The notes beneath the pieces are model-generated. The model ran no database searches and was not told where the DNA came from. It worked only from the letters and a program-made list of their open reading frames with translations. DNA of 15,805 nucleotides, taken from IMG/VR virus record IMGVR_UViG_2541047722_000005. The stretch is one strand, 5' to 3'. The stretch is from a virus (lineage: Duplodnaviria; Heunggongvirae; Uroviricota; Caudoviricetes). Shown here piece after piece: positions 519 through 6,024 of this stretch. The stretch's first letter is position 1. Each line of letters starts with the position of its first letter. A program made the translations under genes and the position numbers.

Positions 519-845
519 ATGAAAAGACGCCTTTTACTACTTTTTCTGTTATCTGTCCTGGCAGTGGGATGCTCGCAGCAAAAAGCTGATGAGCCCCGGC
601 AATTAGTGACGGTGTATCCACGATATCCGGAATATGCTGCAGCAAATTATATCAAGGGGCTGGTTGAGGTTAAGTTCGATATTGGTGCTGATGGGACTGT
701 GACACGGATCGTTTTTCTCCGCTCAGAGCCTCATAATTTGTTTCGTGATGAAGTGGTGAAGGCCATGGCGAAATGGCGATTTGAAAAGAATCGCCCCTGT
801 CAGGGAGTGAAGAGACAATTTATCTTTACGCCGTCACGTCCTTGA
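519..845 (+). CDS. Lipoprotein with TonB C-terminal-like domain (108 aa); moron-like accessory gene
   Basis: ATG 519 preceded by AGGA (509-512). N-terminus MKRRLLLLFLLSVLAVGC is a typical signal peptide with lipobox-like LAVG|C, Ser at +2. Residues ~30-100 (VYPRYPEYAAANYIKGLVEVKFDIGADGTVTRIVFLRSEPHNLFRDEVVKAMAKWRFE) align by eye with the E. coli TonB C-terminal domain as recalled (YP..A...I.G.V.VKFD...DG.V......S.P...F..EV..AM..WR.E). The upstream GTG at 465 in the ORF track is rejected as the start. Confidence 0.7.
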   Translation: MKRRLLLLFLLSVLAVGCSQQKADEPRQLVTVYPRYPEYAAANYIKGLVEVKFDIGADGTVTRIVFLRSEPHNLFRDEVVKAMAKWRFEKNRPCQGVKRQFIFTPSRP

Positions 846-937
846 TGCTTCCAGGTAGAGAGGGGCTGGAAGCAGGAGAAAAATGAAAGAGCCAGCGGTT
901 ATATTTTTGTCATGGCTGACGAGGAATGATGGAAGAA

Positions 938-985
938 GGCGTTGTATGCCACACAACGCCTCACTGTTCATTTCTTCTTTTTCTC
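938..985 (+). terminator. Candidate intrinsic terminator downstream of the lipoprotein gene
   Basis: Perfect 8-bp stem GGCGTTGT (938-945) / ACAACGCC (953-960) with 7-nt loop, followed by a T-rich tract tcactgttcatttcttctttttctc. The U-tract is interrupted, so strength is uncertain. Confidence 0.4.
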
Positions 986-1208
986 TGGTGGAACCCGATG
1001 AATAAGAGTTGCACTGGTTTCCGATGAGATGGCGATATACTCGGGCAAAGTATGCTGGCAGTTTTCCAACTGGTCAAAAATACCTGCTCTCGTCTGTTGC
1101 AATGCCTGCAGCATGCGGCGGCAATGCGCCTTGCTTTTACTAACCATCTTTCCTTCCTCTATCAGTCGCTGCGTGAACTCATCATGGAATACCAGGTAAA
1201 TGCGGATG

Positions 1209-1460
1209 TTATCGGTTTTGGCTACGCAGCATAGTACAAAACGGACAGGTGCATCCCGGGACGGGGGAGGCGTCACATGTCCCTGTGATGGTTGTTCCGG
1301 GTAATGTACTGTGTGGGGCATAAAAATGTCCGATAATTTTACTTTCTACCGCAGTTAGTTGATTCGTTGGTCCTGGTAGCACATTGGGCGAGGATTTAAA
1401 TGCCAGGCAACTGAAGGATGATGTCGCAAGGGAGATAGCGAGAATATTTCTGATTTTCAT
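1209..1460 (-). CDS. Hypothetical small secreted Cys-rich protein (83 aa precursor)
   Basis: Minus-strand ATG (revcomp 1458-1460) with AGAGG about 9 nt upstream. N-terminus MKIRNILAISLATSSFSCLA looks like a Sec signal peptide (basic n-region, hydrophobic core, small residue at -1). The mature part ends with a C-x6-C-x-C-x2-C cluster (GTCDASPVPGCTCPFC). No homologue recognised; it sits in the position and orientation that bor occupies in lambda. Confidence 0.35.
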   Translation of the reverse strand: MKIRNILAISLATSSFSCLAFKSSPNVLPGPTNQLTAVESKIIGHFYAPHSTLPGTTITGTCDASPVPGCTCPFCTMLRSQNR

Positions 1461-1608
1461 TTGATGATGCCTCTGTGTGAAATGACGGTAAACGACGCAC
1501 TTGTGCCGGCACATAATAGCAAGCACCATAATAGATCAGATTCGATTCTTGCTGTAAGTGATAATTATTCTCGTTTTCGGGTCCTTTCCGTCGATCCAAC
1601 AGGTTACG

Positions 1609-1796: not shown

Positions 1797-2345
1797 ATGA
1801 AGGTTAATAAAAAGAGGCTTGCCGAAATTTTCAACGTGGACCCGCGGACGATTGAACGCTGGCAGTCTCAGGGACTCCCTTGCGCCTCCAAAGGCAGTAA
1901 GGGCATTGAATCTGTATTTGATACTGCCATGGCAATTCAGTGGTATGCGCAGAGGGAAACTGATATCGAAAACGAAAAGCTCCGCAAAGAACTGGACGAT
2001 TTGCGTGCGGCAGCGGAGTCAGATTTACAACCCGGCACCATTGACTATGAACGCTACCGGCTCACAAAAGCGCAGGCAGATGCGCAGGAACTGAAAAATG
2101 CCCGTGAAGACGGAGTAGTGCTGGAAACTGAACTGTTTACCTTCATTCTGCAACGTGTGGCACAGGAGATTTCGGGGATACTTGTGCGTGTGCCGTTGAC
2201 ATTACAGCGTAAATATCCGGACATTTCACCATCACACCTTGATGTGGTGAAAACTGAAATCGCGAAAGCCTCCAATGTTGCAGCTAAGGCCGGTGAAAAC
2301 GTGGGCGGGTGGATCGATGATTTCAGACGCACAGAAGGCAGCTAA
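1797..2345 (+). CDS. nu1: Terminase small subunit (Nu1 homologue, 182 aa)
   Basis: [26 protein letters not shown]... aligns along its full length with lambda Nu1 as recalled (MEVNKKQLADIFGASIRTIQNWQEQG...; conserved [33 protein letters not shown]); N-terminal HTH; first gene after cos. Confidence 0.9.
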
Positions 2346-4245
2346 TGCAGCCGGTGCGATAGCTACAGGGCTTTTATCTCTCATTATTCCTGTTCCACTG
2401 ACGACAGTTCAGTGGGCCAATAAACATTATTACCTTCCTAAAGAGTCGTCTTATACCCCGGGGCGGTGGGAAACACTGCCGTTTCAGGTTGGCATCATGA
2501 ACTGTATGGGCAACGATCTGATTCGCACGGTTAACCTGATTAAATCTGCCCGTGTTGGTTATACAAAGATGTTGCTGGGAGTGGAGGCTTATTTTATTGA
2601 GCATAAATCACGCAACAGCCTTCTTTTTCAGCCCACGGACTCAGCTGCTGAAGATTTTATGAAATCTCATGTTGAGCCAACGATAAGGGATGTTCCTGCA
2701 TTGCTGGAGCTGGCTCCATGGTTCGGAAGAAAACACCGCGATAATACGCTCACCCTGAAGCGTTTTTCCTCCGGTGTGGGGTTCTGGTGTCTGGGTGGTG
2801 CGGCAGCAAAAAACTACCGTGAAAAATCCGTGGATGTGGTCTGTTATGACGAGCTTTCCTCGTTCGAACCGGATGTTGAAAAAGAGGGTTCGCCAACCCT
2901 GCTGGGGGATAAACGTATTGAGGGCTCTGTATGGCCAAAATCCATTCGCGGCTCGACGCCTAAAATCAAAGGCTCCTGCCAGATCGAAAAAGCCGCTAAC
3001 GAGTCGGCACACTTCATGCGTTTTTATGTGCCCTGTCCGCACTGTGGGGAGGAGCAGTATCTGAAATTTGGCGATGATGCCTCGCCTTTCGGTCTTAAGT
3101 GGGAGAAGAATAAGCCAGAAAGTGTTTTCTACCTTTGTGAGCATCATGGCTGTGTGATCCATCAGTCTGAGCTTGACCAGAGTAACGGGCGGTGGATCTG
3201 TGAAAACACGGGCATGTGGACCCGTGACGGCCTGATGTTTTTCAGCGCCCGGGGTGATGAAATTCCGCCGCCGCGCTCCATCACTTTCCATATCTGGACG
3301 GCGTACAGTCCGTTCACCACCTGGGTACAGATTGTCTATGACTGGCTGGATGCACTGAAAGATCCCAACGGCCTGAAAACCTTTGTGAACACCACGCTGG
3401 GCGAGACCTGGGAAGAGGCTGTGGGCGAAAAACTCGATCACCAGGTGCTGATGGATAAGGTTGTGCGTTACACGGCGGCGGTGCCTGCCCGGGTGGTTTA
3501 TCTGACGGCGGGCATTGACTCGCAGCGAAACCGTTTTGAGATGTATGTCTGGGGATGGGCTCCGGGAGAGGAAGCCTTTCTGGTGGATAAAATCATCATT
3601 ATGGGGCGTCCCGATGAGGAAGAGACGCTGTTACGTGTGGATGCGGCGATCAACAAAAAATACCGCCATGCAGACGGAACCGAAATGACCATTTCCCGTG
3701 TCTGCTGGGACATCGGGGGGATCGATGGCGAAATCGTTTATCAGAGGTCAAAAAAACACGGTGTTTTCCGGGTGCTGCCGGTAAAAGGCGCATCTGTCTA
3801 TGGCAAGCCGGTGATCACCATGCCAAAAACCCGCAATCAGCGGGGCGTGTATCTGTGTGAAGTGGGGACGGACACCGCAAAAGAAATTCTCTATGCCCGT
3901 ATGAAAGCCGATCCCACGCCTGTGGATGAAGCCACGTCGTATGCTATCCGTTTTCCTGATGATCCGGAGATTTTTTCGCAGACAGAGGCGCAGCAACTGG
4001 TCGCGGAAGAGCTTGTGGAGAAGTGGGAAAAAGGAAAGATGCGTCTGCTGTGGGATAACAAAAAGCGGCGTAACGAAGCGCTGGACTGCCTGGTGTATGC
4101 CTACGCGGCATTACGTGTGTCCGTGCAACGCTGGCAGCTTGATCTGGCTGTACTGGCAAAATCCCGGGAAGAAGAGACGACCCGGCCAACCCTTAAAGAA
4201 CTGGCAGCGAAGCTGTCCGGAGGAGTGAATGGTTACAGTCGCTGA
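2317..4245 (+). CDS. A: Terminase large subunit (gpA homologue, 642 aa from ATG 2317)
   Basis: Strong colinear similarity to lambda gpA as recalled ([80 protein letters not shown]). Start chosen at ATG 2317 (MISDAQK...), overlapping the Nu1 3' end by 29 nt as in lambda; the track ORF starts further upstream at 2275. Confidence 0.9.
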
Positions 4246-4435: not shown

Positions 4436-6024
4436 AACGAACGCCTGTCCTGATTGATGTGAACGGCGTTCCGCTTCGTGAGAGTCTCAGCTACAACGGG
4501 GGCGGTGCAGGATTTGGCGGGCAAATGGCTGAGTGGTTGCCACCGGCGCAGAGTGCCGATGCGGCCCTGCTGCCCGCGTTGCGTCTGGGGAATGCCCGGG
4601 CAGATGATCTGGTGCGCAATAACGGAATAGCGGCTAATGCGGTGGCTCTGCATAAGGATCACATTGTCGGGCATATGTTTCTGATCAGCTACCGTCCGAA
4701 CTGGCGCTGGCTGGGGATGCGGGAGACCGCAGCAAAAAGCTTTGTCGATGAGGTGGAGGCGGCCTGGTCGGAATACGCCGAAGGGATGTTTGGCGAGATC
4801 GACGTGGAAGGAAAACGCACGTTCACGGAATTTATCCGTGAAGGTGTGGGCGTTCATGCGTTTAACGGCGAAATCTTTGTGCAGCCGGTCTGGGATACGG
4901 AAACCACGCAGTTATTCCGTACGCGTTTTAAAGCCGTGAGTCCGAAACGGGTGGACACGCCTGGACACGGTATGGGGAACCGTTTTCTGCGGGCCGGTGT
5001 GGAGGTCGATCGATATGGCCGTGCCGTCGCGTACCATATCTGTGAGGATGATTTTCCGTTCTCTGGTAGTGGACGATGGGAACGGATCCCGCGTGAACTT
5101 CCCACCGGGCGTCCGGCCATGCTGCATATTTTCGAGCCGGTGGAGGACGGGCAGACCCGTGGGGCTAATCAGTTTTACAGCGTCATGGAACGGCTGAAGA
5201 TGCTCGATTCCCTGCAGGCAACACAGCTTCAGTCGGCCATAGTGAAGGCGATGTATGCAGCGACGATTGAAAGTGAACTTGATACCGAAAAGGCCTTTGA
5301 ATATATCGCCGGCGCGCCACAGGAGCAGAAGGATAATCCGCTTATTAATATTCTGGAGAAGTTTTCCAGCTGGTATGACACGAATAACGTGACACTGGGC
5401 GGTGTCAAAATTCCGCACCTTTTCCCTGGTGATGATCTGAAACTACAGACTGCGCAGGATTCAGACAATGGATTTTCTGCGCTTGAACAGGCGCTGCTGC
5501 GGTATATCGCCGCCGGTCTTGGCGTTTCCTACGAACAGTTGTCCCGTGATTACTCGAAGGTCAGTTACTCAAGTGCCCGCGCCTCCGCCAATGAGTCGTG
5601 GCGCTATTTTATGGGGCGGCGAAAATTTATTGCGGCCCGGCTGGCCACGCAGATGTTTTCCTGCTGGCTGGAAGAGGCACTTCTTCGGGGGATTATTCGT
5701 CCGCCACGGGCACGTTTTGATTTTTATCAGGCGCGATCAGCCTGGTCACGGGCAGAGTGGATTGGTGCCGGAAGAATGGCCATTGACGGGCTCAAGGAAG
5801 TCCAGGAATCAGTGATGCGCATTGAGGCCGGACTGAGCACGTATGAGAAAGAGCTGGCGCTGATGGGCGAGGATTATCAGGACATTTTCCGCCAGCAGGT
5901 CAGGGAATCTGCTGAGCGGCAAAAAGCCGGACTCTCACGTCCGGTGTGGATAGCGCAGGCGTATCAGCAGCAGATAGCGGAGAGTCGCAGGCCGGAAGAG
6001 GAGACAACACCACGTGAGACGTAA
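4432..6024 (+). CDS. B: Portal protein (gpB homologue, 530 aa from ATG 4432)
   Basis: Extensive similarity to lambda gpB as recalled (NARADDLVRNNG.AANA, FEPVEDGQTRGAN.FYSVME, LQSAIVKAMYAATIESELDT, LLRYIAAGLGVSYEQLSR, GRMAIDGLKEVQE). ATG 4432 overlaps the W stop (ATGA). Confidence 0.9.
   Translation: MKRTPVLIDVNGVPLRESLSYNGGGAGFGGQMAEWLPPAQSADAALLPALRLGNARADDLVRNNGIAANAVALHKDHIVGHMFLISYRPNWRWLGMRETAAKSFVDEVEAAWSEYAEGMFGEIDVEGKRTFTEFIREGVGVHAFNGEIFVQPVWDTETTQLFRTRFKAVSPKRVDTPGHGMGNRFLRAGVEVDRYGRAVAYHICEDDFPFSGSGRWERIPRELPTGRPAMLHIFEPVEDGQTRGANQFYSVMERLKMLDSLQATQLQSAIVKAMYAATIESELDTEKAFEYIAGAPQEQKDNPLINILEKFSSWYDTNNVTLGGVKIPHLFPGDDLKLQTAQDSDNGFSALEQALLRYIAAGLGVSYEQLSRDYSKVSYSSARASANESWRYFMGRRKFIAARLATQMFSCWLEEALLRGIIRPPRARFDFYQARSAWSRAEWIGAGRMAIDGLKEVQESVMRIEAGLSTYEKELALMGEDYQDIFRQQVRESAERQKAGLSRPVWIAQAYQQQIAESRRPEEETTPRET

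Follow-up and report, generated by a model that had tools for sequence, protein, structure and literature searches.

An unannotated gene beside cos in phage-21-type prophages of Escherichia coli encodes a predicted exported four-cysteine protein

Several small proteins of lambdoid prophages and of their enterobacterial hosts provide a frame of reference for the gene described here. The lambda protein Bor and its relative Iss (PF06291) are small exported envelope proteins, lipoproteins expressed by the lysogen, whose genes are placed after the lysis genes and before cos, in opposite orientation to the late genes. Closer to cos, the YlcI/YnfO family (DUF3950) of lambda, DLP12, Qin and the O157 and O104 prophages is encoded by the first leftward gene past a palindrome, cosQ and cosN, antisense to nohD/Nu1; this gene is unannotated in the RefSeq record of lambda. 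On the host side, ZinT (YodA) and PliG are small Sec-exported periplasmic proteins that are induced by zinc starvation, and the periplasmic steps of zinc acquisition in the Zur response are incompletely understood.

The stretch of DNA analysed here, a virus record of 15,805 nucleotides (IMGVR_UViG_2541047722_000005; hereafter the window), is by its sequence a phage-21-type lambdoid prophage. Positions 850-1800 match phage 21 (OL657228.1) at 100% identity, across its right end and its cos region, and the same match is present in prophages of CFT073, Nissle 1917, ATCC 25922, S88, IHE3034 and many other E. coli. The layout was established by mapping annotated records (phage 21 GenBank and CFT073 RefSeq) onto window coordinates. 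The mapped iss/bor gene, on the minus strand, ends at about position 38, and a TonB C-terminal-domain lipoprotein-like gene (PF03544) occupies 519..845 on the plus strand. The phage 21 annotation places cosQ (GGGTCCT) at 1579..1585 on the plus strand and cosN, the mature phage 21 genome end, at 1608/1609; the ORF list of the window adds Nu1 (1797..2345, plus strand) and the large terminase subunit (2275..4245, plus strand). About 120 bp left of cosQ, running against the late operon and antisense to Nu1 and terminase, lies a coding sequence of 83 codons and a stop (1209..1460, minus strand) for the precursor of a secreted four-cysteine protein, an assignment drawn from the translation, same-length homologues and dN/dS. 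A preliminary description made from the letters of the window had reported this frame; it is intact, it translates exactly as quoted there, and its orientation against the late operon is confirmed by the positions of Nu1 and the large terminase subunit. The same description had put the gene in a slot like that of bor, which proved incorrect: bor/iss lies further left, and the 83-aa gene sits in the cos-proximal leftward slot.

The open frame extends to an upstream ATG at 1529, which would give 106 aa, and some GenBank submitters annotate this longer form. The conserved start is the ATG at 1460, and homologues open with MK(I/V). A Shine-Dalgarno sequence read from the window, AGAGG (1470..1474, minus strand), lies 9 nt upstream of this ATG; six of the eight loci compared have GGAG or GAGG 8-10 nt upstream, and GGAG, GAGG or AAGGA followed by ATCATCA(A/G)ATG also precedes the Salmonella, Klebsiella-plasmid and second E. 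coli alleles. The gene is unannotated in the curated phage 21 record and in RefSeq CFT073, both of which list a plus-strand ORF instead, and different annotators have chosen four different overlapping ORFs here. Neither the plus-strand frames of the phage 21 and RefSeq annotations (883..1005 and 1052..1234) nor the minus-strand frames of the PhiR57_1 annotation (968..1321 and 1396..1599) are supported, and a homology search with the 60-aa plus-strand ORF at 1052..1234 returned only near-identical E. coli relatives of variable length. We found nothing on the 83-aa gene in the literature on phage 21, ylcI, cosQ/Fur and Zur-regulon small proteins.

By itself, an ORF of 83 codons is not beyond chance in 15.8 kb, and the window holds dozens of similar size; its significance comes from conservation. 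A word-indexed search yielded 22 relatives, among them proteins of 83 aa in Salmonella subspecies, Citrobacter and Klebsiella that are 55-77% identical. When 1.84 billion representatives were searched exhaustively with a profile, 30 representative clusters emerged, nearly all of 79-85 aa and down to 25% identity. Across this range of 25-77% identity, homologues come from Salmonella, Klebsiella, Citrobacter, Enterobacter, Serratia, Pantoea and Buttiauxella, and the named members (Klebsiella, Enterobacter, Serratia, Pantoea, Salmonella and Citrobacter) are all labelled 'hypothetical protein'. Beyond Enterobacterales-type sequences the exhaustive search gave just three metagenomic repeat proteins, and a scan of GTDB species representatives gave only 3 loci. 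Judged from these searches, the family is uncharacterised and restricted to Enterobacterales. The earlier statement that no homologue was recognisable thus holds for characterised families, but a sizeable uncharacterised one exists. PA5534, the small ORF of the Pseudomonas dksA2-COG0523 operon, was considered as a member of the same family and dropped; the profile search found Enterobacterales-type sequences.

Among eight DNA copies compared by the Nei-Gojobori method, pS was 0.15-0.90 and pN 0.04-0.31, and dN/dS was 0.06-0.39 where dS was not saturated (synonymous sites were otherwise saturated, with pN about 0.2). Substitutions fell mostly at the third codon position (for example 23/10/49), a pattern that excludes a conserved non-coding element. 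Related prophages, in which the preliminary description had proposed to test conservation, retain the frame: a 98.9%-identical variant has it intact, with one synonymous change and one T53A change in the ORF and a 1-bp indel in the intergenic spacer. A more distant E. coli allele, 71% identical, takes the equivalent place beside cos in three further lambdoid prophages (L009-L011), and the window and L009 copies differ at pS 0.79 and pN 0.17, which indicates that selection acted while the gene was phage-borne. Given this conservation, the dN/dS values, and the invariant cleavage junction and four-cysteine module described below, we reject the chance ORF that had been offered as an alternative, and 1209..1460 on the minus strand is almost certainly a real, selected protein-coding gene.

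The whole region is almost unchanged in 1,223 of 5,426 complete E. coli genomes (~22%), and its carriers include CFT073, Nissle 1917, ATCC 25922, S88, IHE3034 and APEC O18. Any match to the region is found in 4,605 of the 5,426, most of these covering a cos block of 62-68 bp. Phage 21, ev017, Perceval and the PhiR phages carry the 83-aa gene; lambda and the DLP12, O157 and O104 prophages lack it, although the flanking cos block is common to all. The gene is thus cargo lodged among conserved phage modules, and some relatives have it while others do not, as is characteristic of morons. Its base composition and GC content are not distinctive and bear no foreign mark.

Residues 1-20 (MKIRNILAISLATSSFSCLA; 1401..1460, minus strand) form a predicted signal peptide, in which MKIR is followed by the hydrophobic core NILAISLATSSF and then by C-L-A, with F as the first residue after the predicted signal peptidase (SPase) I cut between Ala20 and Phe21. 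In an alignment of 30 family sequences, Ala20 and Phe21 are invariant and position -3 is C, A or S. The Sec-type leader proposed in the preliminary description is well borne out by its charged n-region, its hydrophobic h-region, the small residues at -3 and -1 and the invariant junction. By rule and by conservation, the protein is very probably exported by Sec and cut by SPase I, most likely at Ala20/Phe21, which would yield a periplasmic or envelope protein of about 63 residues. The predicted mature protein (1212..1400, minus strand; ~6.6 kDa, pI ~8.5) is rich in Thr, Pro and Ser and has exactly four cysteines, as does the mature part of all 30 family members. Mature length is 59-65 aa in the 28 members whose Ala-Phe junction was located by script; P0031 and P0032 were left out of this range, having been split at an earlier AF.

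The mature chain ends in the module G60-T-C62-x3-P66-V-P-G69-C70-x-C72-P-F-C75-T-M-L78-R79 (1224..1283, minus strand), delimited from the alignment. Cys62, Cys70, Cys72 and Cys75 are invariant in the 30 sequences, and Gly60, Pro66, Gly69, Leu78 and Arg79 are at least 90% conserved. The earlier description of a mature peptide of about 63 aa with a four-cysteine ending therefore stands, except that the first spacing is x7 and not x6 (C62-x7-C70-x-C72-x2-C75). We regard this module (C-x7-C-x-C-x2-C-x2-LR) as the one rigidly conserved part of the mature protein; a mid-chain stretch, E39-x2-I-x3-F-Y-x2-H, is moderately conserved and predicted to be helical. AlphaFold2 models reached pLDDT 46.6 and 58.2 with alignments of 13 and 30 sequences, values too low for a fold search, and place a low-confidence helix from the CxxC onward (residues 73-81). 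Searches with the 83-aa protein matched no family of Pfam or NCBIfam at E <= 1 and none of PHROGs at E <= 0.1; all 30 members against Pfam gave two weak matches, each by a single member (DUF4148, E = 0.014; HMBD, E = 0.5), and the family profile matched no PDB sequence at E <= 10. With no related structure or family, the chemistry of the cysteine module is unconstrained. Cys4 metal sites are unusual in the oxidising periplasm, where two disulfides are the default expectation, and this location favours disulfides over metal binding for the four cysteines.

The slot that the gene occupies holds a ylcI/ynfO-family gene in lambda, DLP12 and the O157 and O104 prophages. A search for sigma-70 promoters upstream of the 83-aa gene revealed none that was convincing. 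A Fur-box-type 7-1-7 palindrome, TGATAATTATTCTCG on the plus strand (1559..1573), matches TGATAATnATTATCA with 2 mismatches. It covers the stretch 99-113 nt upstream of the ATG, and 5 bp separate it from cosQ; it is the sole match in the window at up to 2 mismatches (0.03 expected). The palindrome is perfect at the same cosQ-side position in lambda, DLP12, O157, O104 and L009, and it is found next to cosQ in each of the six lambdoid cos regions examined, whatever gene follows. On the left, the block that lambdoid prophages have in common starts with this palindrome. The spacer of 5-6 bp varies, as does all sequence to the left of the palindrome. Since it is common to lambdoid cos regions regardless of the downstream gene, the palindrome cannot be assigned to the 83-aa gene; from its distribution, it may be the operator of a general cos-proximal leftward cargo unit, or part of cos.

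A 59-aa ORF (MVSKSKAHCRR...; 968..1144, minus strand) with a strong Shine-Dalgarno sequence, GGAAGGAAAG, and a match to phrog_4843 is a possible second gene of this leftward unit. Homology searches found only near-identical E. coli relatives of it and no similarity to the YlcI/DUF3950 protein; two seemingly divergent copies of this stretch (L039 and L040) were left out as indel-ridden read assemblies. It overlaps the equally unsupported plus-strand ORF at 1052..1234. At 936..962 on the minus strand, 6 nt past the stop of the 59-aa ORF, RNA folding predicts a hairpin with a 12-bp stem followed by UUCUUCC (-22.6 kcal/mol, z = -3.7; none of 200 shuffles was as stable). This candidate terminator was not flagged by a terminator scan because its U-tract is weak, but according to the folding model it could terminate the leftward unit.

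Relatives of the gene occur both on other mobile elements and outside them. Plasmids carrying it number 73, of which 66 are from Klebsiella and 63 are of conjugative IncF types, and a degenerate cos remnant still lies upstream of the plasmid copies. The phage-derived copy on Klebsiella IncF plasmids adjoins genes for FolE2, a COG0523 GTPase and a Fur-family repressor, and further copies lie in an ICE-like island of Salmonella and an island of Klebsiella. At three loci (L021-23) the gene follows a COG0523 gene, and in Pantoea (L025-27) it lies between dksA2 and a COG0523 gene, with genes for FolE2, a gamma-carbonic anhydrase, Zur, ThrRS and CysRS around it. In Enterobacter/Klebsiella (L018) it adjoins genes for a ZnuABC-like transporter, HemB (ALAD family) and an amidohydrolase, and in Citrobacter (L012) it is divergent from a fecI-fecR-TonB-receptor operon. 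In a Salmonella islet (L004 and L015) it stands directly 3' of a pliG-like gene that is preceded by a near-perfect Zur box; the islet also holds Bor-like and omptin genes, and its flanks carry a SPATE autotransporter and a NEL effector. Some contexts (L030 and L033) have no metal theme. COG0523, FolE2, DksA2, Zur, ZnuABC-like and pliG neighbours are textbook Zur-regulon content. For pliG itself, control by Zur has been demonstrated in E. coli (PMC4219657).

Zur boxes were sought in the 200 bp upstream of each copy by matching the palindromic core and the published two-dimer pattern (about TGTTATAwTATAACA, or TGWNAYRWTATAWYRTNWCA), with shuffled controls. Outside mobile elements, eight of nine upstream regions contained a match with a shuffle p <= 0.005; these eight represent seven independent contexts, since two of the nine belong to the same Salmonella pliG-like islet. 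The box TGTTATAGTATAACA precedes the pliG-like gene of Salmonella, Buttiauxella has TGTTATTATATAACA at -36, and L021 has TGTTATTTTATAACA at -89; the match in Citrobacter is borderline. The window copy has no match at up to 3 mismatches, and the upstream regions scanned in phage, plasmid and island copies contain no Zur box. The box is therefore a property of the family and not of the window copy, and the link to zinc is one of family association. Zur control of the relatives is inferred from these boxes, and the zinc link may not apply to the phage allele.

The explanation we prefer, with some reserve, is that the window carries an unannotated prophage gene for a Sec-exported Cys4 protein that serves as a metal-starvation or host-adaptation moron. 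Outside mobile elements, most members sit in Zur-regulon neighbourhoods behind Zur boxes; as single-gene cargo, the gene has been picked up by lambdoid phages, by a lineage of IncF plasmids and by ICE-like islands. Given its position to the left of cos and its transcription against the late operon, the gene is expected to be on in the repressed prophage, the classic arrangement of a moron or lysogenic-conversion gene; orientation and the analogy with bor make it probable that it is a moron expressed from the prophage. The mature protein might then chelate Zn(II) or another soft metal through its four cysteines, or carry two disulfides made by DsbA, and could help the lysogen to withstand host-imposed metal starvation or envelope attack. 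That its role is related to zinc or to another metal, as the gene neighbourhoods of relatives hint, is a possibility we hold only tentatively. More speculative still, and rather unlikely, is that the gene is the phage-borne member of an unrecognised Zur-regulon family for periplasmic capture or hand-over of zinc or thiophilic metals, a helper spread by phages, IncF plasmids and ICEs among pathogenic Enterobacterales, with Zur control exchanged for a cos-proximal and possibly Fur-controlled promoter. Were this so, prophage carriage would directly improve survival under host nutritional immunity.

Alternatively, the protein could be a disulfide-stabilised countermeasure, at the envelope or against host defence, whose work is unrelated to metal binding; it might, for instance, inhibit a host antimicrobial protein. 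Co-regulation with zinc starvation would then have no other reason than that low zinc marks the host environment, as with the lysozyme inhibitor PliG. An even and invariant number of cysteines fits a periplasmic disulfide protein, and the company of the gene is also suggestive, both in the Salmonella islet with its pliG-like, Bor-like and omptin genes and its SPATE and NEL flanks, and in the phage, where the neighbours are iss/bor and the TonB_C lipoprotein. However, the Pfam, NCBIfam and PDB searches revealed no similarity to any known inhibitor family, and several relatives sit among cytoplasmic zinc-sparing paralogues and COG0523 genes and not among virulence genes. We therefore consider this countermeasure unlikely, although it is the strongest rival to a metal-starvation or host-adaptation moron.

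Less likely again is an outer-membrane lipoprotein, in which Cys18 would be lipidated after a cut by SPase II, giving a lipid-anchored protein of 66 residues like the neighbouring Bor/Iss. It is conceivable for the clade of phage, Salmonella and Klebsiella-plasmid sequences, in which the leader ends in ...SSFSC18LAF and Cys18 is invariant. By reading of the sequence, a relaxed PROSITE-type lipobox rule is formally satisfied, with K/R near the N terminus, and the UniRef entry of a 63%-identical member is automatically named 'Lipoprotein'. The lipobox consensus is L-[AS]-[GA]-C, which the Ser at -3 and the Phe at -2 fit poorly. Across the family, moreover, Cys18 is retained in only 15 of 30 members and is Ala (13 members) or another residue in the other 15, so that there is no conserved lipobox, while the invariance of Ala20 and Phe21 fits an AxA site for SPase I.

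The division into a leader, a variable middle and a highly conserved cysteine-rich C terminus, together with carriage on phages, plasmids and islands of pathogens, would also suit a secreted toxin, bacteriocin or signalling pre-pro-peptide similar in style to the heat-stable enterotoxins, with the variable middle as a pro-segment and the C-terminal segment of about 24 residues as the active peptide that is released. This is very improbable: enterotoxin and bacteriocin families of Pfam are not matched at E <= 1, the cysteine pattern is unlike those of STa and STb, and no export, immunity or processing genes travel with the gene. The middle helix motif (E39-x2-I-x3-FY) is conserved as well, which argues that the whole mature chain is functional. 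Finally, a chance ORF, or the shadow of a cos-associated DNA element or of the RefSeq plus-strand ORF, could account for the missing annotation in RefSeq CFT073 and phage 21 and for the four competing ORF calls, but is scarcely credible in view of same-length, in-frame conservation at 25-77% identity that extends to contexts without a cos site, of changes dominated by third codon positions, and of the near-identical E. coli relatives that are all the 60-aa rival has.

About a fifth of complete E. coli genomes, model strains among them, thus carry an overlooked gene. It is almost certainly real, and its link to zinc starvation can be tested. If its product is made in lysogens, it would be a new lysogenic-conversion factor beside iss/bor, and the family is a candidate addition to the Zur response of Klebsiella, Enterobacter, Serratia, Pantoea and Salmonella.

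As a presumed moron, the gene resembles bor and iss. Iss is borne by the same prophage, and in Salmonella the homologue lies right next to a Bor-like gene. Unlike these lysogen-expressed lipoproteins, however, the 83-aa protein has no PF06291 match and no conserved lipobox (Cys18 varies), possesses a four-cysteine module, and is encoded in another slot; it is probably not lipidated. YlcI-type proteins share that slot, and L009 carries a ylcI-type gene and an 83-aa-type gene in series, but they are basic proteins without a signal peptide and unrelated to the one studied here. The Zur boxes and Zur-regulon neighbours of its relatives recall ZinT and PliG, to which the protein has no homology; at about 63 aa it is much smaller, its phage copy lacks a Zur box, and its candidate ligands are cysteines, whereas ZinT uses histidines.

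Two further classes resemble the family in architecture. The precursors of the enterotoxins STa and STb likewise measure about 70-80 aa, start with a Sec leader, end in a cysteine-rich part and are encoded on mobile elements, but the number and spacing of their cysteines differ, no Pfam match connects them to the 83-aa protein, and in the latter the whole mature chain is conserved, with no indication of pro-peptide cleavage in the family sequences. Bufferins and DUF2282-type RiPP precursors, which are modified by MNIO enzymes and bind metal, are small proteins with a Sec leader and conserved cysteines in a setting of metal homeostasis. The 83-aa family has no DUF2282 match in Pfam and no DUF692/MNIO or DUF2063 partner in the approximately 14 contexts examined. 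None of these neighbourhoods has a conserved modifying enzyme, for which reason we reject a RiPP. Set against these systems, the protein is best filed under a new uncharacterised small-protein family, and its gene as one that joins the known class of prophage cargo genes.

Comparison of lambdoid cos regions revealed a Fur-box-type palindrome, TGATAATnATTATCA, which lies 5-6 bp to the left of cosQ in all six of the regions compared. It occupies window positions 1559-1573 and, in lambda, positions of about 48452-48466 in NC_001416 (locus L028), and it is also found in loci L036-L038 and in L009, a second E. coli prophage type. The palindrome is perfect in five of these regions, and the phage 21 copy carries two mismatches. 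Furthermore, the cos block kept in most E. coli genomes has this palindrome at its left edge. We found no description of the palindrome. It could serve as an iron-responsive operator for the leftward cargo genes or, alternatively, as a packaging element.

Between iss and the 83-aa gene lies a predicted lipoprotein cargo gene (window 465/519-845, + strand), whose product begins with a leader reading ...LAVGC and matches the TonB C-terminal domain family PF03544 (E = 1e-12). This gene is another moron of the same region, envelope or metal-uptake-flavoured. The + strand also has two ORFs (window 883-1005 and 1052-1234) that come from the annotation of phage 21 (CPT_21_74 and CPT_21_75) and of RefSeq (WP_000881610.1), and they are overlapped by a 59-aa ORF on the - strand (window 968-1144) with a strong Shine-Dalgarno sequence. 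The only relatives found for any of them are near-identical E. coli copies, and both strands are represented by families in PHROGs (phrog_3744 and phrog_4843). At most one of these ORFs can be a real gene.

In the second prophage type, a short + strand ORF with a lipoprotein-like leader (VKYFALISALLLSAC...; L009, about 5340-5640) separates the 83-aa gene from a DUF3950 gene, and the leftward cargo unit there would thus comprise three genes. Lambda itself has a 64-aa ORF of the YlcI/YnfO (DUF3950) family close to the left side of cos, on the (-) strand and thus opposite to the late genes (NC_001416 48109-48303, or L028 1810-2004). The RefSeq record of lambda has no annotation for this ORF, although its counterparts in K-12 (ylcI), O157 and O104 are annotated.

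Another mobile copy of the 83-aa gene resides, with its neighbourhood, at positions 1509-5252 of L008, from the Klebsiella IncF plasmid NZ_CP047635.1. Because a decayed cos sequence is retained upstream, we conclude that this copy derives from a phage fragment. It adjoins a zinc-starvation cluster (FolE2, COG0523 and a Fur-family repressor) and an IS3-type element. One Klebsiella plasmid of this kind is labelled a virulence plasmid (pINF237_01-VP).

Paired compensating indels have switched the reading frame in a few E. coli alleles of the 83-aa protein (P0003 and P0006), producing an alternative-frame stretch (…PEQPSQGHVTPP…) that returns to frame before CxCxxC, such that the C-terminal module is kept and Cys62 is lost. 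The PVPGCxCPFCTMLR module of the family is strikingly resembled by a repeat, P-[IL]-P-G-C-N-C-P-K-C-T-x-L-R, present in four to five copies in two metagenomic Asn-rich proteins of ~600 aa (P0041 and P0043, encoded on contigs of about 2 kb from ENA and, in one case, from JGI). However, each repeat has just three Cys, and its sequence may represent a convergent metal-binding motif.
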